A stretch of 32,000 bases of DNA from Methylophaga frappieri (GCF_000260965.1 NC_017856.1:2190001-2222000), one strand, 5' to 3'. Positions 3,394 through 16,298 are shown, numbered from the stretch's first letter. Notes: generated by a model from the letters alone, not told the origin. Numbers and translations are program-made.

Positions 3394-4494
3394 TCAATAG
3401 TTCAGACATTGTATTTGCAGTTCTGTTGCCAAGCGATGACAGTAAGGTAAAAGTGCAGCAAGCGACGTCTTTACGGGATAAAGAAAGCTGCACAAAATAT
3501 GGTTCTCAGGAATCCGCTGTCCAACCGGTGGTAAATCATGACAGTTAGCCGGCCAGTTAAACTGGTCTGGGATGCGAATAGGTCTTGCCGTAAAACAATA
3601 ATAGAGTAGCTGGGGCGGACAAACTGGCAGCGCTGGCAGGCTTGGCAGTTGTCCCTGACAAGCATCGAGATGCCATTGAATCAGGGGCCACGTGATTGGC
3701 AGGCATTGCATGCTGGCGGAAGGACGTGGATTGATTTCCAGAATATGAATCTGGCCTTGCTTATCTATTATAAAATCCAGCGAACAAAAGCCGCGCAATG
3801 ACAGCGCTTCGGTCAGTTGTTGGCAATAATCAGTTAGCAATCGTTGCTGCGCAGTGTCTAAATCCAGCTGATTGGTGATGGCCAGTAATTGAAAGTCATG
3901 TTGGGATGTATTGCGACAGATCTGTTCATTAAAACTCATGATCTGACAGCGCTGACCATTGGCTAAAAATAATACTGAGGCGCTGCGTCCCTGGAGCCGG
4001 CGTTGATAATATTCCTGATTTTCAAGACAACGATTTGCAGGAAAAATGTGTGTGCCGCCCCAAGCAGGCCAGCGTTTTATCAGCCAGTGTTGAGGATCTG
4101 TAGGCGGGGTTAGCTGCGTGTCAGGTGTTGCGATATTCAGAGACTGCGTTAATTTTTGCCAAGCCGGATGCCTCAGATGGGGCAAACAGTGTGCTGGTAG
4201 CGTATTGGCAAGCCGAAGGTATGCTGGCAGAACAATATCGAACAGTGCTTCAAAACCGGTTGTAAAGATAAGGGTTGCCGGCTGCTGATCTGATAATTGC
4301 GCAATGCATTCATTAAGTTCTTCAGAATTATCTACTGCCAGGTCAGGCAGCGGTAACCATTTGTCCGCGACCGCACGGGTATCTGTATCGCCAAAGGCAT
4401 CCGCAACACGAACAGAGTAGCCTGAACGTGTTGCGGCTTCAGCGAAAAACCGGCCGCTTTGGCCGATAATGAGTAGACGGGGTTTACAGGTCAG
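3394..4494 (-). CDS. ATP-grasp family protein of the H4MPT-linked C1-transfer gene island (orf5/COG2232-like carboligase); start codon uncertain
   Basis: The C-terminal part (track ORF 3394-4185) has an ATP-grasp signature (FCSLDFIIDKQGQIHILEINPRPSASM). The same frame stays open up to 4497 and encodes a convincing pre-ATP-grasp domain (KPRLLIIGQSGRFFAEAATRSGYSVRVADAFGDTDT...). That stretch contains no ATG, GTG or TTG. The only candidate starts are CTG at 4494-4492 and ATT at 4470-4468. Confidence 0.6.
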   Translation of the reverse strand: MTCKPRLLIIGQSGRFFAEAATRSGYSVRVADAFGDTDTRAVADKWLPLPDLAVDNSEELNECIAQLSDQQPATLIFTTGFEALFDIVLPAYLRLANTLPAHCLPHLRHPAWQKLTQSLNIATPDTQLTPPTDPQHWLIKRWPAWGGTHIFPANRCLENQEYYQRRLQGRSASVLFLANGQRCQIMSFNEQICRNTSQHDFQLLAITNQLDLDTAQQRLLTDYCQQLTEALSLRGFCSLDFIIDKQGQIHILEINPRPSASMQCLPITWPLIQWHLDACQGQLPSLPALPVCPPQLLYYCFTARPIRIPDQFNWPANCHDLPPVGQRIPENHILCSFLYPVKTSLAALLPYCHRLATELQIQCLNY

Positions 4495-4497
4495 ACG

Positions 4498-5404
4498 TCA
4501 AACCAGCTTTCGCGCCCCATCAAAGGCATTGCGAAAATCGAGGTAAACAGCTTTATCACTCTCCAGAGTTTCCTTGAGCAAGGCCTGCTGTAATTTATAT
4601 TTAATATTACCGACCGCCAGAGCACCAATACCTACGGCATCTGGAGCATTGGTCGCAAATTTGAGTGGCTCGCCATCATGCATCAATTCCAGTCCTTCGA
4701 TACCAAGTGGCGCCACCGCGTTTACATCACCGGCAACCTTAAGGTTTCTTGCGTCTTCAAGTACGGAAGCACTGAGCACTTGTACACCTGCTTTAGCAGT
4801 GCAGAAAACGACGTCAGCGGTACTGAGCAAACGCGCCTTATCCGCATCAGAAGCGGCGGTAGTTGCTTTTAGATCAACGCCATAACGTTTTTTCATTTCT
4901 GCAGCAAGTTCCAACGCGGTATCAATCGAAAAATGATCGACAATCGTCGTGTCAGTGCCTTGCTGAGCGGCAATGACAGCTGTGGCCAGACCGACAGGAC
5001 CGGTGCCACCAAAGACCACGGCTTTACAATTTTTATAATCCTGATTGAAATGCTTTTTTAACTCACGTTCGACACAGGCGACCAGTGCTGCAGCAGTTGT
5101 GAACGCGCCACTGGGATCAGCCATCACAGAAATTTCAAAGGGCGGCGACATCGCTTTTTTGGCAGCATCCAGCATATCCATTGCCAGTCCAATATCCCGT
5201 CCACCGATAAACATGCCGGTTTTTTTTACGCCGGCAGGACCACGAGAAAAAAATCGCATCCTGAGTCAGCCCTGCCACCTCTTTAAGCTCGACATGACTA
5301 TAAGGGATTAAGGCATCGTAGCCGGCATCCAGTGCCATATTGATGTCGAAAGGACTATTATGCTTCATGGGGTTAAGCATATGAATAATGGGACGTTTAG
5401 CCAT
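4498..5404 (-). pseudogene. mtdB: Methylene-H4MPT dehydrogenase MtdB, split by a 1-nt insertion in a homopolymer run
   Basis: Track ORFs 5135-5404 (MAKRPIIHMLNPMKHNSPFDINMALDAGYDALIPY...GLTQDAIF) and 4498-5259 (...SRGPAGVKKTGMFIGGRDIGLAMDML...) are the N- and C-terminal parts of one MtdB-type protein. They join at the A7 run on the plus strand (5247-5253). Removing one base gives DAIFSRGPAG, which matches the family consensus. The total of 907 nt is not a multiple of 3. Confidence 0.8.
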
Positions 5405-7520: not shown

Positions 7521-7883
7521 ATGAGGAAATTCAGCGTATTAGTTTTGGCTACAGGAATGATATTACCAACTATTGGATCGGCTCATGATCACAATGTACA
7601 AGATTTCTCTACTGTGACTAAAGTTCATTACGTTCAGGATTGTATGACTGCTAATGGAGACATGAATGTTTATGAAAGTGTCTATAAATGTTCCTGTGTT
7701 ATCGATGCCATTGACGCTGCTTTTACTGAAACCGAGTTTGATGATATCAGTACCGGGTATATGTATCGAAATTTACCAGCGGATCGAGGCGCGCAATTTC
7801 GAGATGATAAGAAATTGAATGAAGTCTCCGACAAATTTGATGAAGTCATTGCGGCTGCGTACAAAGATTGTCGGTTACAATGA
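7521..7883 (+). CDS. Small secreted hypothetical protein (120 aa, four Cys)
   Basis: GGAAGAG ribosome-binding site, signal peptide MRKFSVLVLATGMILPTIGSA, and a strong terminator immediately downstream. I recognise no family. Confidence 0.55.
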   Translation: MRKFSVLVLATGMILPTIGSAHDHNVQDFSTVTKVHYVQDCMTANGDMNVYESVYKCSCVIDAIDAAFTETEFDDISTGYMYRNLPADRGAQFRDDKKLNEVSDKFDEVIAAAYKDCRLQ

Positions 7884-7895
7884 GGTTTTAAAACT

Positions 7896-7928
7896 AAAAA
7901 AATGCCAGTCATTACTGGCATTTTTTTT
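7896..7928. terminator. Bidirectional rho-independent terminator
   Basis: Stem TGCCAGT (7903-7909) pairing with ACTGGCA (7914-7920), loop CATT, flanked by an A7 run upstream and a T8 run downstream. It lies between the convergent 120-aa gene and the carrier operon. Confidence 0.8.
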
Positions 7929-7967: not shown

Positions 7968-8759
7968 TCATATCGTTTTTTCAGAGTTAAATGTCATGTC
8001 TTTACTATCCCTTACAAAAGCCTTAAGCGTACCTTCTTCGCGAGGCGTAAAAACGAAACGAACACTTGGATCTTCGCTAATTGAAATTCCCGCATCAATT
8101 TGAATCAAGCTTTTTCCATTAAATTGAATATCAATATGATCCACATAGTGTGCATTAATATAGCGTCGATTTTTCTGATCAAATTGTAAACCGCTATAAT
8201 TTGGGTGGCTCACAATAACTTGAGCATGAACGGGCTCGTTCAGTTGTGGCTGTCGCATTCTAATTTGCATTTGACCAAGTCGTGCTTGTGCGGCGGCGGC
8301 ATCTTTCCCCGCAGGCGCGCTACAACCTCCAGATGCCTTAACAAAGCGGCTGACCATGTGCAATGAGTTATCGTTCATTTCAGCGATAACACGCATGTCC
8401 GTATATTGATCAACGCGAACACGAGTACTTATCTCAACATCAGTCATCTCAGGGTTTAAATGGAAGTTGGCCGAGTATGGATCAGGATTATTATCAATAA
8501 TTAAATGAATGTTTTTAATGTAGGTTGTTTCGGTTTGCGGTTTTAACAATTTAATCGTTATGGGAACAATTGCGGCATCTTCGGCTCTCTTGGGGGCGTC
8601 GAGACTAATCAGATCATTTGCATCCTCTCGGATATCACGTCCCTCAAAATGAATCTCTTTTAATATTGGCCACATCGGCTCCTTTGGCGTGTCAGCTTGA
8701 GCAGGCAGAGTTAAGGACACACAAATGCTGACTATTAATAAGCAGAAGCGTTTAAACAT
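7968..8759 (-). CDS. Periplasmic SoxY-SoxZ fusion protein (quinoprotein-dehydrogenase-associated SoxYZ-like carrier), copy A
   Basis: ATG at 8759 with a GGGAGAG ribosome-binding site, and a signal peptide. SoxY-like LDAPKRAEDAAIVPITI. Internal GGCSAPAGKD, with the Cys codon at 8322-8324. SoxZ-like VSHPNYSGLQFD...GISISEDPSVRFVFTP. Confidence 0.75.
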   Translation of the reverse strand: MFKRFCLLIVSICVSLTLPAQADTPKEPMWPILKEIHFEGRDIREDANDLISLDAPKRAEDAAIVPITIKLLKPQTETTYIKNIHLIIDNNPDPYSANFHLNPEMTDVEISTRVRVDQYTDMRVIAEMNDNSLHMVSRFVKASGGCSAPAGKDAAAAQARLGQMQIRMRQPQLNEPVHAQVIVSHPNYSGLQFDQKNRRYINAHYVDHIDIQFNGKSLIQIDAGISISEDPSVRFVFTPREEGTLKAFVRDSKDMTFNSEKTI

Positions 8760-8838
8760 ATCTTTCTCTCCCAAAGAAAATGATTAGCTATTATTTAGGA
8801 TAACCTTTTTTAGGATTAGTTCCTGTATATTTTTGGGA

Positions 8839-9639
8839 TTAAAAGCTTTTATTTAAAGTAAAGTTGCCACCTTTACTGTCGGTCACATCAACAGACAGCG
8901 TGCCCGACTTTTCCGGGGTAAACATAAAACGAATGCTCGGATCTTCGCTGATTGATATGCCACTTTCTAATTGAATTAGTGATTCATCATCCACTCGGAT
9001 ATCTATCTTTTCCACATAATGCGGGGGAATGTAACCTCGTGAAGCTTGGTCTATTTGCAAGCCGCTATTGTTCGGGTGGCTGATGATAAGCTGAACTGGT
9101 GTCATATCTCCCGGTACGACTGGGCGCATTCGTAATTGCATTTTACCTAACCGTGCCATTGCGGCTGACGGATCTTTGCCGGCAGGGGCGCTACATCCCC
9201 CCGTGGCTTTGATGTAATCACTGACCATGTACAAACGACCATCATTCATTTCTGCTATAGCGCGAATTGGAGTGTAGCGATCAACTCGAACTCGGGTGGC
9301 GATGTCGATTTCACCTAATTTTGGCGATAACAGGAAGTTTGCCGAGTAGGGCATGGGATTGTTGTCGATAAATAAATGCAGTCGTTGAATATAAGCCGTT
9401 TCCGTCGGTGTGAGATTTGAGCTAATGCGAATGGGTACAACGGCGGCGTCTTCAGCCCGTTTCGGTGCCTCGAGTTGCAACATTTCCGGCTCAGCAACAT
9501 GAATAATTTTATCCCCAAAATAATGTTGTTTTAAGGCAGGCCAGGCGGTTTCATCGGTTGTCTCTGATGTAGTTGCATTGACGGTGCTTGCAAACAGCAT
9601 GATGCTGAGAAAAAATAAACGACTCATGATGGATAACAT
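8839..9639 (-). CDS. Periplasmic SoxY-SoxZ fusion protein (SoxYZ-like carrier), copy B, tandem paralogue of copy A
   Basis: ATG 3 nt after the hydrolase stop, with a GGGAG ribosome-binding site and a signal peptide. LEAPKRAEDAAVVPIRI. GGCSAPAGKD, with the Cys codon at 9193-9195. ISHPNNSGLQID...GISISEDPSIRFMFTP. Hand alignment of a 115-residue core gives about two-thirds identity to copy A. Confidence 0.75.
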   Translation of the reverse strand: MLSIMSRLFFLSIMLFASTVNATTSETTDETAWPALKQHYFGDKIIHVAEPEMLQLEAPKRAEDAAVVPIRISSNLTPTETAYIQRLHLFIDNNPMPYSANFLLSPKLGEIDIATRVRVDRYTPIRAIAEMNDGRLYMVSDYIKATGGCSAPAGKDPSAAMARLGKMQLRMRPVVPGDMTPVQLIISHPNNSGLQIDQASRGYIPPHYVEKIDIRVDDESLIQLESGISISEDPSIRFMFTPEKSGTLSVDVTDSKGGNFTLNKSF

Positions 9640-9642
9640 AGC

Positions 9643-10568
9643 TTACTCCCACTCCAATTCTACAAACGCAGCGGTCACATTGCGTCGGTGATAATGTTGA
9701 AACAATTGCCAATTTGAACACGCATTGGGAGCAACAGTTTCCGTTGCCTGATCAATTGTGCCCATATCCTGAATAATTTCGCGAATGTCGGTTCGAACTG
9801 TTTTCAAATAGGTCAGTATGGGTTGCCAAACAGCCGACTCTGCGCCTATTGCAGCAGGACCATGGCCAGGAATAATCGCATGAAACGATTGTTGCTGAAA
9901 TTTTTCCAATATAGCAATCCAGCCATTAATACTGCCATCTAAGGCCGGTATTCGTTCTCGAAACAATAAGTCTCCCGTCCAAAGGGTATTGGTCTTTTGA
10001 TCCAGAACGGTAAGATCATGATCTGTGTGCGCTGTGGTGTATGCGGTGAGCAATAACGACCGGTTGCCGAGATCCAGTGTAGTTGGTTCTGATGTTGTGA
10101 CTAACTGATCGGGCCCGATGAACTCAGTGCCATTATACGCTGACCCCAGAATTTCAGAAAATTGCCGTTGATAATGCGCCAAGCGACTTGCCATCGCATT
10201 CGGCATTTTTTCGTGACCAATAAAAATAGTTTGCTCATCGTCAAAAGCCGCGTTGCCAAGCATATGATCCGGATGAACATGGGTATTAATGACATAGCAA
10301 ACGGGCAGTGAGGTCACGCTTTTAATTGCTTGTTTAAGGTGCGTGCCCTCACGGTAACTGCCACCGCTATCTATAACCGCGACACAACGTTCACCAACAA
10401 CAAACCTACATTGGCAATGGCACCCATATTGGTTTCGTTGGCATCTTCATGCACGCCTTGATGATAATAAACGCCATCGGCGACCTGATTGATGGGGTAA
10501 GCGTCATCCGCATGTGAAGCGCTACTGAACAACATTAACATCAGGACTAAGCTGGATTTTCCCCTCAT
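9643..10568 (-). pseudogene. Secreted metallo-beta-lactamase-fold zinc hydrolase (SoxH-like, 'quinoprotein relay system' type), split by a 1-nt deletion
   Basis: Track ORF 10371-10568 encodes a signal peptide plus ...GVYYHQGVHEDANETNMGAIANVG. Track ORF 9643-10317 carries THVHPDH and the rest of the MBL fold. That second frame is open upstream and reads FVVGERCVAVIDSGGSYREG. The two frames join at the AAA run on the plus strand (10402-10404). The total of 926 nt is not a multiple of 3. Confidence 0.75.
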
Positions 10569-10643
10569 TGGGTGTCTCCGGAAAATGAACCAATACTGTT
10601 ACAATATCGCATTTTTCAACATTGATGTCAGCCGAGGGAAAAC

Positions 10644-12044
10644 ATGACTATTCGTACACGATTTGCACCAAGTCCAACCGGTTATTTGCATGTTGGTGGT
10701 GCCCGTACAGCGCTGTTTTCATGGTTGTATGCGCGCAAGCAAGGAGGCCGCTTTGTTTTGCGAATTGAAGATACGGATCTGGCGCGTTCAACAGAAGCAT
10801 CAGTTAATGCCATTTTGGAGGGCATGAATTGGCTTGGCTTGGATTATGATGAAGGACCTTTTTATCAAACCCAGCGATTTGATCGATATAAAGAAGTGAT
10901 TGCCCAGCTCTTAGCACAAGGCGATGCCTATTACTGTTATTGCACCAAGGAAGAGCTGGAAACATTGCGTGAGCAACAGCGAGCTAATAAAGAAAAGCCA
11001 CGTTATGATGGGCGCTGGCGGGATCGGACAGATTCTCGTCCAGGCGTTGAGCCGGTTATTCGTTTTAAAAATCCGCTAACAGGTGTGGTCACTTTTCGCG
11101 ATGCGATTCGGGGGGAAGTAACTTTTAATAATAGTGAACTGGATGATCTGATCATTGCGCGAGCGGATGGCACACCAACCTATAACCTGACGGTTGTTGT
11201 CGATGATCTGGATATGGGCATGACCCATGTGATTCGTGGCGATGATCACATCAACAACACGCCGCGACAAATTAATATCTTTAATGCGTTAGGCGCAACA
11301 CCACCCGTGTTTGCCCATGTGCCAATGATATTGGGAGATGATGGTGCGCGGTTGTCCAAGCGTCATGGTGCTGTCAGTGTCATGAGTTATCGTGATGAAG
11401 GCTACTTGCCAGAAGCGCTGTTGAACTACCTGGTCCGTTTAGGCTGGTCACATGGCGATCAAGAAGTGTTTTCACGCGAGGAAATGATCCAGTTATTTGA
11501 TATCGACGATGTTAACCGGGCGGCATCAAGTTTCAATACCGAAAAGCTGATTTGGCTCAATCAGCATTATATTAAACACAGTGAGCCAGCCTATATTGCG
11601 GAACACTTGCAATGGCATCTGGAAAAACGTGATTTAGACATCAGCAATGGCCCGGCATTAACGGATGTCATTGTGTTGTTGCGTGAGCGTGTCAAAACAC
11701 TGGTCGAGTTGGCTGATAGTTGCCGTTATTTTTATCAGGACGTTGAGGAATATGACGAAAAAGCGGCAAAAAAACATCTTACCGCAGATAGCTTGCCCAT
11801 TCTGAGTGATTTTTTGTCACGACTGCAAGCGCTTCCAAACTGGCAGGCAGCCTTAATTCACTCCGAAATCAAAGCCTGTGCTGAGGCATTTGGTGTCGGC
11901 ATGGGAAAAGTAGCACAGCCCGTTCGGGTTGCTCTGACGGGTAACACCGTATCACCTTCGTTAGATCTGACTTTAGCTTTAGCAGGACGTTTGCGCACTG
12001 AAAGCGCAATTCGCCGTGTGATTAATTGGATTGAAAAGGAGTGA
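10644..12044 (+). CDS. gltX: Glutamate--tRNA ligase
   Basis: 466 aa with the class I signatures [10 protein letters not shown] (HIGH) and LSKRHG (KMSKS). Confidence 0.95.
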
Positions 12045-12192: not shown

Positions 12193-12260
12193 GCCTCTTA
12201 AGCATGAAATACGTGCTCAAATTTTCGTGCAATGACGAAAAGCAATCAGAGGATAACTTT

Positions 12261-14039
12261 ATGAAGCTGAAAACATTATCAATTGCCATGATGGGACTGG
12301 CAGCACCAGGGCTGGTAGCCGCTGATGAACTGCTGGAAATGCAAAAGAATCATGACGAATGGGTCATGCCGGCAGGTAACTATGCCAATCACCGCTACAG
12401 CACCCTGACTGATATTAATAAAGAGAATGTCAAAGATCTGAATATGGCTTGGTCCTTCTCCACAGGGGTTCTCCGTGGTCATGAGGGTAATGCACTGGTT
12501 ATGGACGGTACGATGTATGTTCATACCCCGTTTCCAAACATTGTTTTTGCACTTGATTTGAACAATGATGGGGCAATCAAATGGAAATATGAGCCAAGCC
12601 AAAACTACGATGAAACCGTCCCAGTCATGTGTTGTGACACGGTGAACCGTGGTCTGTCTTATGCTGACGGTAAAATCTTCCTGAATCAGGCTGATACCAC
12701 GTTGGTGGCATTGGATATGGAGACTGGTGAAGAGGTTTGGTCGGATAAACGTGACGATGCGAAAGTAGGTGCGACCAGCACTGCTGCTGCCCACGTTTTT
12801 GATGACAAAATCATTGTCGGTATTTCAGGGGGTGAGTTTGGTGTTCGTGGTTATGTCCAAGCTTATGACTTAGATGGTAACGTTGTTTACAAAGCCTACA
12901 GCACCGGTCCTGATGACGAAATGTTGATTGATGGCGAAAAGACAACGACCATGCTTAAGCCGATTGGCAAGGACTCATCCCTGAAAAGCTGGCAAGGCGA
13001 TCAATGGAAAATTGGCGGCGGTACCACTTGGGGTTGGTATTCATATGACCCGGATTTGAATTTGTTCTATTACGGCTCTGGTAACCCATCAACCTGGAAC
13101 CCAGTACAACGTCCTGGTGATAATAAATGGTCTATGACAATTTTTGCTCGTGACCTTGATACCGGTATGGCCAAATGGGTCTATCAAAAAACACCATATG
13201 ATGAATGGGACTATGATGGTGTTAACGAAAACATTTTGGTTGACCAAAAAGTCAACGGCAAAATGCGTAAGACGTTGGTCAATTTTGACCGCAATGGTTT
13301 TGCCTATACGTTAGACCGTGTGAATGGTGAATTGCTGGTTGCCGAAAAGTTTGATCCAGCGGTGAACTGGTCAAATGGTGTCAGCTTGGAAACAGGTCGT
13401 CATGATCGTGTTGCTAAGTACTCCACTGCCCATAATGGTGAGGATGTGAATACGACAGGTATTTGTCCGGCAGCATTGGGCACAAAAGACCAACAGCCAG
13501 CGGCATACTCACCGCGTACAGGCCTGTTCTATGTACCAACAAACCATGTGTGCATGGACTACGAGCCATTTGAAGTGGAATACGTCGCTGGTCAGCCGTA
13601 TGTGGGCGCGACATTAGCAATGTATCCAGCACCAGGTGGTACACACTTGGGTAACTTCATTGCCTGGGATGCACGCGAAGGTAAGATCGTTTGGTCTAAC
13701 CCGGAACGTTTCTCGGTCTGGTCTGGTGCGTTAGCGACCGCTTCGGATGTTGTTTTTTACGGTACGCTTGAAGGTCATTTAAAAGCGGTTGATGCACAAT
13801 CAGGCCGTGAACTGTGGCGGTTTAAAACGCCATCAGGGATCATCGGTAACGTGAACACTTACAAGCATGATGGTAAGCAGTACATTTCTATCTTGTCAGG
13901 TGTCGGTGGTTGGGCTGGTATCGGTATGGCTATCCCAAGTCTGGAAAATGATGCTGATGGTTTGGGCGCGGTTGGTGCCTACCGTTCACTGTCTAGCTGG
14001 ACAAACCTGGGTGGTGTATTGAGTGTGTTCAGCCTGTAA
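12261..14039 (+). CDS. xoxF: Lanthanide-dependent PQQ methanol/ethanol dehydrogenase, XoxF type
   Basis: ATG at 12261 with an AGAGGA ribosome-binding site and signal peptide [21 protein letters not shown]. Vicinal Cys pair [10 protein letters not shown]. Full-length co-linearity with the MxaF/XoxF family. The motif DEWDYDGV has Asp (13215-13217) at the position where calcium-type MxaF has Ala. No mxaI small-subunit gene is adjacent. Confidence 0.9.
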
Positions 14040-14089
14040 TAAGGCCATGCGTATATTGATTGATTAAATATACGAAGCAAAAGAAAAAA

Positions 14090-14120
14090 CCCGGTGCCGA
14101 TTGGCACTGGGTTTTTTTTT
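14090..14120 (+). terminator. Rho-independent terminator after xoxF
   Basis: CCCGGTGCC (14090-14098), loop GATT, GGCACTGGG (14103-14111), then a T9 run (14112-14120). Confidence 0.85.
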
Positions 14121-14179
14121 GAAACTGACAAGGTTATTGTATTGTCATAAATGTTCCCAGTAATGATAAGGAAAAAGTA

Positions 14180-15058
14180 ATGATTAAGCGACAGCAGTGG
14201 ACAGTTTTATTAGGCGGTTTGTTTGTGACAGCAATAGGTTCAGCTAATGCTGCAGACTTGGAGCCGTTAAAGGGACAAGAGGTTTTACGTGTTTGTGCTG
14301 ACAAAAACAATATGCCTTACTCTAATGGTGATCTTGAAGGCTTTGATAATAAAATTGCAGCCCTTTTAGGTGAAGAGTTAGGTATACCCGTAGAGTATTA
14401 TTGGTTTCCTCAGCGAATTGGCTTTGCGCGAAATACGTTAAAAAAAGAACATCCAACCGAAGCTCGCTATATGTGTGACGTAGCATTTAATATTTCTGAG
14501 ACATCTGATTTCGTCAAAACTACAAATCCTTATTATGAGTCTATAGAAGTAGTTGCTTATCGGAGCGGAGAAGGTTATGACATCAATAAGTTGACCGATA
14601 TTAAAATGGCAAATGAACAGCATGGTCCTCTGAAAATTGGCCTGTTTGATCGTGCGTTAACGACAAAGCATATCGTTGACATGGGCTTAGCCGATAACAT
14701 TGTTTATTATCAAATGATGGCTGGTGGTTGGGATGTGACCCCAGGAAGAATTATCGAAGATCTTGCTGCAGGTAAAGTCGATGTTGTTCCTATGTGGGGG
14801 CCTATCGCTGGCTATTATGGAGCCAGACAAGATGTTGATATTGCGGTTAAGCCGCTGAATGAGTTGGGGCAACGCCATGTATTTGCTTTTAGTATGGGAA
14901 CGCGTTATGGCGAACCAAAATGGACGGCATTGTTAAATAAATTTATTGAGAAGCGTCAAGATGATATTGATGCAATCATTGCTGAATACAATTTACCTTC
15001 TTTAGAAAATGTTAGTCCGACCCCTGCTAAGCGGATTCGCAAAGATGATGACGATTAA
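14180..15058 (+). CDS. xoxJ: Quinoprotein-dehydrogenase-associated periplasmic substrate-binding protein (MxaJ/XoxJ family)
   Basis: Signal peptide, then LRVCADKNNMPYSNGDLEGFDNKIAALLGEELG, typical of MoxJ/XoxJ. It lies directly downstream of xoxF. Confidence 0.8.
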   Translation: MIKRQQWTVLLGGLFVTAIGSANAADLEPLKGQEVLRVCADKNNMPYSNGDLEGFDNKIAALLGEELGIPVEYYWFPQRIGFARNTLKKEHPTEARYMCDVAFNISETSDFVKTTNPYYESIEVVAYRSGEGYDINKLTDIKMANEQHGPLKIGLFDRALTTKHIVDMGLADNIVYYQMMAGGWDVTPGRIIEDLAAGKVDVVPMWGPIAGYYGARQDVDIAVKPLNELGQRHVFAFSMGTRYGEPKWTALLNKFIEKRQDDIDAIIAEYNLPSLENVSPTPAKRIRKDDDD

Positions 15059-15088: not shown

Positions 15089-15538
15089 TCATAGCGTGGC
15101 CGCATCTATGATATGCCTTAGGTTACCGTTAATTTTGGTGGAAAAGTTGCGCTGCTCACCGCGTCCTTTTTCCTGCATTAACCGACCACTGACGATGACG
15201 CCTTGGGATGTTTCACGAACGGCAATCGTACAAGGCATTTCATTGATCAGATGATCATCAATCAGCATCATTTCTTTAGCGTAAGTGATATTGCAGAAAC
15301 TAATAATGGTAGCTAATGGAAAGTTCGGATCGCCTCGGTCACGTATTGCTTGACCAATATCACTACGATGAATAATACGATAGTTGTACTCTGATATTGC
15401 TATATCCAGGCTCAGTAGCGTGTCTTCAAAATTATAAGGGCTTATCGATTGATAAACATTTAGTTGATTCGCCTGACAACCCGCGAAGGTGAGCCATGCT
15501 ACAGAAAGAAAAGCGTATTTAAACCAGGATATTGGCAT
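15089..15538 (-). CDS. DUF302-like lipoprotein
   Basis: Lipobox LTFAGC near the N-terminus. The core RIIHRSDIGQAIRDRG...PLATIISFCNITYAKEMM...MPCTIAVRE resembles the DUF302 pattern, recalled from memory and not searched. Confidence 0.5.
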   Translation of the reverse strand: MPISWFKYAFLSVAWLTFAGCQANQLNVYQSISPYNFEDTLLSLDIAISEYNYRIIHRSDIGQAIRDRGDPNFPLATIISFCNITYAKEMMLIDDHLINEMPCTIAVRETSQGVIVSGRLMQEKGRGEQRNFSTKINGNLRHIIDAATL

Positions 15539-15611: not shown

Positions 15612-16298
15612 ATGATGAAAACCCGTTTTGCCGTGATACTTTTTTGTATGCTTTTAAGCTGTTTTGGCCAGGCTTATGCGGTACCAGGTTACTCGGAAAT
15701 AAATAATGCCTTGTTCGACAAATCTCACCTTAAAAACATTAATGAATCAGCAAAACTGACATATAAGTATCAGAAAACGAGTTACACAGAAGGTAACCGG
15801 GAAGATACGATTGTTATGTCGGTTGATAATATTCGAAATACAGGTCGCCGTGATACGCAGTTTGAGTTCTTCACTGGCAAGCATAATCGCCCATATCAAG
15901 CGATGAATGATCAGCGCGGTAACCCTATTTTTGTTTATTTTTTAGAGTTTGATGTGCATGAAATGGATCGTCTCACGGGCGGTGAGTGGCGCTATTTTCA
16001 ACGAAAACTTCGTTGGGCAATGGCTGCGGGCGCGGATAAAAAACAAGTCGAGATTGACTATCAAGGAAAAAAGGTAGAAGCAACGCAATATACGATTCAA
16101 CCTTATGTTGATGATCCTAAAAATGGTCGCTATAAACTGTATGCCGGAAAGTATTATATTTTTACGCTATCTGAAGCAGTTCCAGGTGAGATTTATCAAA
16201 TTAGAACGGTCGTTCCTGATGGCTTGACATGGGATGGTGAGCAAGTGCCATTAATTGACGAAACAGTTACATTATTTGATTATCGGCCAGAACACTAA
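15612..16298 (+). CDS. Secreted hypothetical protein (228 aa)
   Basis: ATG at 15612 after a GGGAGAGAG ribosome-binding site. Signal peptide MMKTRFAVILFCMLLSCFGQAYA. The track's longer start at 15489 would overlap the divergent gene. I recognise no family. Confidence 0.55.
   Translation: MMKTRFAVILFCMLLSCFGQAYAVPGYSEINNALFDKSHLKNINESAKLTYKYQKTSYTEGNREDTIVMSVDNIRNTGRRDTQFEFFTGKHNRPYQAMNDQRGNPIFVYFLEFDVHEMDRLTGGEWRYFQRKLRWAMAAGADKKQVEIDYQGKKVEATQYTIQPYVDDPKNGRYKLYAGKYYIFTLSEAVPGEIYQIRTVVPDGLTWDGEQVPLIDETVTLFDYRPEH

Follow-up and report, generated by a model that had tools for sequence, protein, structure and literature searches.

Three co-directional genes of Methylophaga frappieri encode a metallo-beta-lactamase (MBL)-fold hydrolase and, behind it, two tandem carrier proteins in which SoxY-like and SoxZ-like domains are fused. 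They lie in a 32,000 nt stretch of the genome (NC_017856.1:2190001-2222000, from GCF_000260965.1), here called the window, whose own numbering is used for all positions. The SoxH-related hydrolase gene, of family TIGR04559, occupies 9643..10568 (-) and is followed by carrier A (8839..9639, -; 266 aa), the proximal and extra paralogue, and by carrier B (7968..8759, -; 263 aa), both of family TIGR04557. The hydrolase stop codon is separated by 3 nt from the start of carrier A, with a GGAG site positioned within the upstream gene; a gap of 79 nt follows carrier A, and the ATG at 8759, preceded by a GGGAGAG ribosome-binding site, is most likely the start of carrier B. The operon ends at a bidirectional intrinsic terminator hairpin (7896..7928), held in common with the convergent gene of a secreted protein, p120. 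This hairpin, A8-TGCCAGT-aatg-ACTGGCA-T7, gives a folding energy of -25.1 kcal/mol over a 96-nt stretch (z = -4.1 against shuffles), and a consensus scanner did not flag it. At the other end, 75 nt lie between the divergent starts of the hydrolase gene (10568) and gltX (10644), and a sigma-70-like promoter candidate (CTGACA-17-GATATT with a TG extension; 10603..10631, -) is found 5' of the hydrolase start; it is a consensus match only, the count of such sites in the region being that expected from shuffles. The coordinates and spacings had been given in a preliminary description made from the DNA alone, together with a clean terminator, and they stand as given there.

Both carriers score far above the curated cut-off of TIGR04557 (273.3 bits for carrier A and 266.9 bits for carrier B, against 140), and Pfam recognizes SoxY in the N-terminal and SoxZ in the C-terminal part of each single polypeptide. 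The models for true SoxY (TIGR04488; 72.5 and 75.9 bits, cut-off 125) and true SoxZ (TIGR04490; 60.4 and 66.1 bits, cut-off 76) are matched only under their cut-offs. An AlphaFold2 (AF2) model of carrier A has a mean predicted local distance difference test score (pLDDT) of 93.3 and a predicted template modelling score (pTM) of 0.86, the blocks spanning the cysteine loop averaging 95 and 88, and Foldseek places it on SoxY (2ox5_Y, TMt 0.86) and on SoxZ (1v8h, TMt 0.85; range 0.85-0.87). The motifs GGCSAPAGKD and SHPN.SGLQ of the carriers and THVHPDH of the hydrolase, as first described, are present in the translations.

The cysteine of the GGCSAPAGKD motif is encoded at 9193..9195 (-) in carrier A, as Cys149 of TGGCSAPAGKD, and at 8322..8324 (-) in carrier B, within SGGCSAPAGKD; both codons had been correctly located. 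In a profile search of the PDB, Cys149 was aligned on the substrate-carrying cysteine of SoxY (4uwq_B and 2ox5_Y). An exhaustive HMMER search for carriers returned 150 representatives at 33-52% identity, and the 129 of these that are of full-length size, at 33-50% identity, taken together with the two window carriers, show the cysteine in 129/131 sequences, within K-A-[SA]-G-G-C-S-A-P. It is the sole cysteine of the mature protein in 117/131, as is Cys149 in mature carrier A, and carrier B likewise has a single mature cysteine. In carrier A its position is internal, at residue 149 of 266, with SAPAGKD and then the SoxZ domain behind it, and there is no C-terminal GGCGG arm.

The hydrolase gene proved to be less simple than it first appeared. 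It is not one open reading frame (ORF): a signal-peptide piece (10371..10568, 65 aa) and a catalytic piece (9643..10317/10425, 224 aa) lie in different frames. The break falls at a T3 run (10402..10404, -) where homologues need T4, GGT TTT GTT (G-F-V) being required and GGT TTG TT being found, and in an alignment of 12 homologues of 307-313 aa the invariant GAIANVGF[VI][VI]GE.C spans it. The missing T puts the signal peptide and the first ~55 residues out of frame with the remainder, such that the intact secreted protein of ~307-313 aa expected for TIGR04559 is not encoded by the sequence in the record; the public record of the M. frappieri hydrolase holds only the 224-aa piece (P0271). The preliminary description had missed the break. 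The signal peptides that it gave to all three products, judged here by eye, are present on both carriers; on the hydrolase there is one, of Sec type, only after repair of the frame.

Addition of one T at 10402-10404 yields a 308-aa protein that aligns without gaps to the 307-313-aa homologues, contains no stops and has every invariant residue of the alignment. Against the TIGR04559 hidden Markov model (HMM; cut-off 280) the repaired protein scores 391.3 bits and the 224-aa ORF 296.3 bits, and Pfam assigns Lactamase_B. The models for a SoxYZ-like carrier and a relay metallohydrolase that the preliminary description had named exist and are matched above curated cut-offs, and the SoxY, SoxZ and Lactamase_B domains expected of the three proteins are found. 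The di-metal ligand set (HxHxDH, H, D, H) is complete, with H97, H99, D101, H102, H181, D200 and H236 invariant. No model of glyoxalase II (hydroxyacylglutathione hydrolase) is among the 16 hydrolase matches at E <= 0.001, and the remaining HMM matches are class B beta-lactamase models, all far under their cut-offs. The closest solved relative is chlorothalonil dehalogenase (6uxu, E 1e-18), the others being class B lactamases, and these relationships are uninformative as to substrate.

The break in the hydrolase gene is probably an assembly or sequencing error, in which case the organism itself has an intact module. Within the same 32 kb another single-base frameshift is found, in a conserved gene of the tetrahydromethanopterin (H4MPT) pathway (Mpt_N family, methylene-H4MPT dehydrogenase-like; 4501-5404, -), whose residues 1-68 and 51-301 are in separate frames; the break, near 5225-5262, sits in a T7/A8 homopolymer stretch and so suggests indel errors in the assembly. 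It is possible, with a distinctly smaller probability, that the frameshift is real, the hydrolase being a pseudogene in M. frappieri and the module decaying or being rewired, such that both carriers act without the hydrolase or are non-functional. The presence of the break in the window and in the public record speaks for this, as do the shortness of a T3/T4 run for a homopolymer sequencing error and a lineage that is unusual through its second carrier. Against it are the repaired reading, stop-free and gapless with all invariant residues kept, and the second break at T7/A8 runs, which points to assembly indels; the M. frappieri JAM7 genome was also, presumably, sequenced by pyrosequencing. 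A metagenome scan for an independent T3 or T4 copy of the site found none. Programmed frameshifting was considered and set aside: GTA GGT TTG contains no slippery heptamer, and all 119 homologues listed are single ORFs. The issue is in any case independent of the mechanism discussed below. Elsewhere in the window, an ATP-grasp gene (3394-4497, -) is open and homologous to ~4482, with its first in-frame ATG, GTG or TTG at 4185; it has either an unusual start codon or another sequence error.

The operon lies next to the genes of a methanol dehydrogenase that depends on pyrroloquinoline quinone (PQQ). The XoxF-type enzyme (12261..14039, +; TIGR03075, 726 bits) is encoded 1.6 kb from the module and is followed by a XoxJ-like periplasmic binding protein (14180..15058, +; TIGR03871, 223.5 bits against a cut-off of 212). 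The window XoxF is 90% identical to its orthologue in another of the loci surveyed below (L004) and has a vicinal Cys-Cys pair (VMCCD) and a WDYDG motif with the extra Asp, the DYD of which we take to be the signature of a lanthanide enzyme. The gap between xoxF and xoxJ is 140 nt (12204-15058 region), with no xoxG cytochrome gene between them; many non-Methylophaga loci, mostly betaproteobacterial, have an interval of ~600 nt with room for xoxG. The housekeeping gene gltX (glutamyl-tRNA synthetase; 10644..12044, +) stands between the operon and xoxF. Beyond xoxJ are a DUF302 protein (15089..15538, -; Pfam), seen in the tblastn survey as a recurrent neighbour in gammaproteobacterial loci, and p230 (15612..16298, +), a secreted protein of ~228 aa.

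To place this arrangement in context, window proteins were scanned by tblastn against 85 carrier loci, namely 80 GTDB loci, the best of at least 592, seeded with [VI]KASGGCSA from a 28-sequence alignment, and 5 added Methylophaga contigs. The hydrolase is directly upstream of the carrier and co-directional with it in 71 of the 83 loci that have room for it. Among the 40 loci with complete 10-kb flanks, an MBL neighbour is present in 37, XoxF (62-91% identical to that of the window) in 28, XoxJ in 30, p120 in 29 and p230 in 27. The chance of meeting a PQQ dehydrogenase within 10 kb is put at ~1-2%, a rough inference from the few such genes in a several-Mb genome. Family matches, cysteine conservation and enrichment beside PQQ dehydrogenases, three of the points on which the preliminary description had staked its account, were all found.

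Two gene orders prevail. The first, XoxF-XoxJ-p230-p120-MBL-carrier, to which another, divergent MBL gene is often added and sometimes a further carrier, is seen in many non-Methylophaga loci, whose named hosts are mostly Betaproteobacteria (Variovorax, Methylibium, Rubrivivax). In the second, which accounts for most other loci, XoxJ/XoxF are divergent from MBL-carrier and p120 is convergent; the window has this order with gltX inserted. The wedge formed by gltX, first remarked from this window, is an insertion specific to Methylophaga, being found in 22 loci, all Methylophaga-like, and in 0/59 others. Betaproteobacterial clusters lie beside gfa/flhA/fghA and Methylophaga clusters beside H4MPT genes.

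Further copies occur in some genomes. In L036 (12423-14233) a second carrier and a second hydrolase are found downstream of the first carrier, and similar arrangements are present in L029, L060, L065 and L085; by name the hosts of such second pairs are Ideonella, Methylibium, Piscinibacter, Rubrivivax and an unclassified proteobacterial metagenome-assembled genome. The second hydrolase was considered as a "type 1" enzyme (TIGR04558), an assignment rejected for the L036 example, the sole one scanned, which scores 199.7 and 168.3 bits, under the TIGR04558 and TIGR04559 cut-offs; it looks like a divergent third paralogue or subfamily. In some Methylophaga (L009, L024-L026) extra MBL-carrier or carrier-only loci lie away from any XoxF. 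Those in L024 (7993-10735) and L025 (8039-12065) form a second MBL-carrier locus type, ahead of which a TetR-like regulator and a protein of 88 aa are encoded, and in L025 it is followed by a gene that by sequence appearance only is cysteine-desulfurase-like.

The presence of two carriers behind one hydrolase is unusual among Methylophaga. Carriers A and B are 52% identical over 262 aa and 66% identical in the best 115-residue window (A58-172), the latter in keeping with the two-thirds identity first estimated by hand over a 115-residue core. Among the Methylophaga-like loci (L001-L026) the tandem pair is shared only by L011 (uncultured Methylophaga, OZ245877.1), and other Methylophaga have a single carrier. 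A neighbour-joining tree, built without bootstrap, puts carrier B among the single-copy carriers (74-77% identity to those of L006 and L007) and joins carrier A to the additional proximal copy of L011, close to the base of the Methylophaga clade. Carrier B is orthologous to the one carrier that other Methylophaga have, and these tree positions indicate a duplication that is old and mostly lost rather than recent.

The survey also brings two further proteins into the gene set. Neither p120 nor p230 has a Pfam or NCBIfam match. The first (7521..7883, +), a secreted, helical protein of 120 aa convergent with the operon, is encoded in 61/85 loci across Gamma- and Betaproteobacteria, beside the carrier and in conserved gene order, and its four cysteines, C41, C57, C59 and C117 (C..CxC..C), are invariant from Methylophaga to Thiodiazotropha. 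Its AF2 model is a helical bundle (pLDDT 80) for which Foldseek found nothing significant in the PDB (best E 1.8), and a word-limited sequence search returned Methylophaga-like "hypothetical proteins" only. The public M. frappieri annotation has just a 73-aa version of it (Q7C_2203). In many non-Methylophaga loci, mostly betaproteobacterial by name, p230 is placed between xoxJ and p120, and it recurs in the same gene clusters as the carrier. Both proteins co-occur with the carrier as tightly as XoxF and XoxJ do and belong to the conserved gene set; the module is broader than three genes.

Together these results identify the operon as the M. frappieri version of the accessory module, termed "quinoprotein relay", that accompanies lanthanide-dependent XoxF, in which the carrier is present as two old paralogues and the hydrolase is translationally coupled to a fused carrier; we would give this identification, with the coupling, a probability of about 0.95. 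Known modules of TIGR04557 and TIGR04559 include PP_2677/PP_2678 of the Pseudomonas putida ped cluster and META1p1703-1705 of Methylobacterium extorquens. The window module has in common with them above-cut-off family scores, the SoxY-SoxZ fusion, the internal GGC cysteine, an adjoining hydrolase and, close by, a lanthanide-type PQQ alcohol dehydrogenase and a binding protein of XoxJ/PedG type. It differs in its two tandem carriers behind one hydrolase, where many Betaproteobacteria have two hydrolase-carrier pairs, in the gltX gene between operon and xoxF, and in the frameshifted hydrolase of this record. Family membership is already annotated in the source genome. Databases and papers of 2024-2026 already cover the family, its occurrence beside PQQ dehydrogenases and the fact that it has no known function; the variants seen here are the two carriers and a probable sequencing error.

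Several of those papers bear on function. A 2026 review of the Pseudomonas ped genes notes that PP_2666 (rhodanese), PP_2677 (SoxYZ-like) and PP_2678 (SoxH-like) are conserved with lanthanide PQQ dehydrogenases and that genes for rhodanese and thioredoxin-like proteins occur in the clusters of P. putida and M. extorquens, and it proposes either that a disulfide or cofactor is maintained or that PQQ is shielded from sulfur nucleophiles (PMC12997753). Fused SoxYZ clades beside PQQ-ADH/soxH and beside xoxF/fdh are described in a 2024 study of SoxY diversity, and SoxH has been proposed there as a substitute for SoxB (PMC11237559); a Sox(YZ)-SoxH pair is also present in a Hyphomicrobium PQQ-enzyme cluster (PMC11582611). 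No activity of the module is reported in these three papers, in agreement with the earlier statement that no biochemical function is known. The module is not mentioned in a 2025 Hyphomicrobium paper in Mol Microbiol, and a literature search combining SoxH, metallo-beta-lactamase and thiosulfate found nothing.

Like canonical SoxYZ (2ox5, 2oxg, 4uwq), the carriers have both folds, a cysteine after Gly-Gly and a dedicated metallohydrolase analogous to SoxB. Unlike it, each window carrier is one polypeptide rather than a heterodimer, its cysteine is internal and predicted to be ordered rather than part of a free GGCGG arm, and the partner hydrolase has the MBL fold rather than being a di-Mn enzyme of SoxB type. 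SoxH of Paracoccus pantotrophus is likewise a periplasmic MBL-fold protein, and NCBIfam names the present family "SoxH_rel"; the window enzyme, however, belongs to a subfamily defined by its PQQ-dehydrogenase context, and is paired with a fused carrier rather than encoded in a sox operon. With glyoxalase II (GloB) and other MBL thioesterases it shares the HxHxDH/H/D/H set and a C-terminal helical extension, but it is periplasmic, and its presumed substrate is a protein-bound adduct rather than a glutathione thioester.

The cycle of loading and hydrolysis that best fits these features is one of sulfur adducts, comparable to that of SoxY and SoxB, and serving to protect XoxF; we hold this part of the interpretation tentatively, at a probability of roughly 0.4. 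The single cysteine of the carrier, which is homologous to the swinging-arm cysteine of SoxY and lies in an ordered GGCSAP loop where the SoxY and SoxZ halves join, would take up a reactive sulfur species (persulfide, S-sulfonate or thiosulfonate) as a covalent adduct, either spontaneously or through thiol or sulfur-transfer partners such as the CXXCW rhodanese-like protein of other genomes. The MBL hydrolase would then strip the adduct hydrolytically, as SoxB unloads SoxY, and regenerate the free thiol. Sulfur nucleophiles might in this way be kept from attacking the electrophilic C5 carbonyl of PQQ and the disulfide, a strained one, of the vicinal Cys-Cys pair in XoxF, the role being one of protection or repair and not part of an energy-yielding pathway. 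The nature of the adduct, the substrate of the hydrolase and the protective role are what we infer from the combination of a lone homologous cysteine, pairing or fusion with a hydrolase, and occasional sulfur or thiol partners, a combination that favors the sulfur-adduct cycle.

The fusions and partners are those of other genomes. In the representative library the carrier is fused to an MBL domain in P0127 and P0220 (555-566 aa) and, in P0204 (470 aa), to the rhodanese-like domain of TIGR03865 ("PQQ-dependent catabolism-associated CXXCW"; motif CHERCW), although these could be gene-calling fusions in metagenomes. The TIGR03865 domain is also encoded within 10 kb of the carrier in 8/85 loci and is not in the window. 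One family of Mo-enzymes is found within 10 kb of the carrier in L009, L038, L052 and L078; that of L009 is a SoxC-type sulfite dehydrogenase (TIGR04555, 571 bits), divergently adjacent to the carrier. The L009 locus itself (8102-10798; Methylophaga sp. EC01-02) has a carrier, the SoxC-type enzyme and a c-type cytochrome, and its 10-kb surroundings contain no PQQ dehydrogenase.

A number of observations weigh against a sulfur-adduct cycle. No adduct on these carriers has been shown experimentally, and RB-TnSeq (random-barcode transposon sequencing) of P. putida without lanthanides gave minimal phenotypes (PMC12997753). Among the ORFs scanned in the window there is no rhodanese, SoxC, soxXA, soxB, soxCD or other Sox enzyme, and the 32 kb contain neither a rhodanese/CXXCW nor a thioredoxin-like gene. 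Few loci of the survey have sulfur-linked neighbours (4 and 8 of 85 loci, and one fusion protein), and most hosts, such as Variovorax, Methylibium and P. putida, are not sulfur oxidizers. A cysteine loop that is anchored on either side and, by prediction, ordered would make a poorer "arm" than the SoxY C-terminus. The metal ligands of the hydrolase are those of MBL hydrolases in general and are just as compatible with a thioesterase, and the relationship to 6uxu says nothing about sulfur. Finally, the 80 GTDB loci of the survey are the best-scoring matches and were seeded on the cysteine motif, and the enrichment near XoxF is given without matched control neighbourhoods.

Of the competing interpretations, the least improbable supposes a thiol-disulfide relay, in which the vicinal disulfide of lanthanide PQQ dehydrogenases would be made or mended by the carrier cysteine together with CXXCW, p120 and partners of thioredoxin type, or these would aid cofactor insertion, the role of the hydrolase being auxiliary. 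Disulfide formation or cofactor stabilization has been proposed in the ped review, which also notes the association with vicinal-Cys enzymes and a thioredoxin-like gene in M. extorquens (PMC12997753). The rhodanese-like partner with its CXXC-type motif CHERCW, the four invariant cysteines of p120, which travels with the module, and the presence in the same clusters of XoxJ, a proposed XoxF helper, are all in accord with such a relay. It is nonetheless unlikely: it leaves no role for the most tightly coupled partner, the metallohydrolase (71/83 loci, and fusions), and a single-Cys carrier would be an odd disulfide catalyst. Moreover, ExaA of P. aeruginosa and enzymes of MxaF type make the same disulfide without these genes (PMC12997753).

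We consider somewhat more doubtful the periplasmic aldehyde relay raised in the preliminary description. Here an aldehyde, formaldehyde in particular, would be held on the carrier cysteine as a hemithioacetal, oxidized by XoxF or another oxidant to a thioester, and released as formate by a glyoxalase-II-like MBL enzyme. The tight and specific placement of the module beside XoxF/XoxJ rather than Sox genes agrees with this, as do the formaldehyde-oxidation neighbourhoods (H4MPT genes; gfa/flhA/fghA) in which the clusters lie, the single free cysteine of each carrier and the full ligand set common to the hydrolase and glyoxalase II; MBL-fold thioesterases are well established. The hydrolase nevertheless matches no glyoxalase II model at E <= 0.001, no candidate enzyme was identified for loading or oxidizing a protein-bound hemithioacetal, and hosts have complete cytoplasmic formaldehyde pathways next door. 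That an ordered internal cysteine loop should reach the buried PQQ of XoxF also looks sterically unlikely. The fusions seen are to the CXXCW rhodanese-like domain and to MBL, not to one-carbon enzymes. Direct support for the hemithioacetal/thioester relay was not found, and the CXXCW fusion, with SoxC in 4 loci, points more to sulfur or thiol chemistry.

A bolder interpretation, and an improbable one, is that the carrier-hydrolase pair with p120 and p230 constitutes a hitherto unrecognized machine for covalent catalysis or repair, serving lanthanide PQQ dehydrogenases. In one version, the aldehyde produced by XoxF would be converted to the acid through a carrier-bound thioester, a periplasmic pathway on protein thiols; in another, a repair cycle would rid PQQ or the vicinal disulfide of sulfur adducts. 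On either version the M. frappieri carriers, being two, would serve distinct partners or substrates. An autonomous carrier for dissimilatory oxidation of thiosulfate or of sulfur from dimethyl sulfide (DMS), beside XoxF by chance or co-regulation, which takes up the alternative offered in the preliminary description, is very improbable: homology to SoxY, SoxZ and SoxH and the extra Methylophaga carrier loci without a nearby PQQ dehydrogenase (L009, by a SoxC-type enzyme, and L024-L026) speak for it, but the carriers score under the true SoxY and SoxZ cut-offs, the window has no soxXAB genes, and chance is hard to reconcile with an order relative to XoxF, XoxJ, p230 and p120 that is fixed in Beta- and Gammaproteobacteria alike, many of which do not oxidize sulfur.

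The window by itself adds little, being one more example of the module with a duplicated carrier, and the survey adds two unannotated secreted proteins to its gene set. Lanthanide alcohol dehydrogenases are widespread and their accessory genes are partly understood, and the carrier-hydrolase pair is among their most constant neighbours. The identity of the cargo on the carrier cysteine would tell protection or repair of quinoproteins from sulfur nucleophiles apart from a protein-bound aldehyde pathway.

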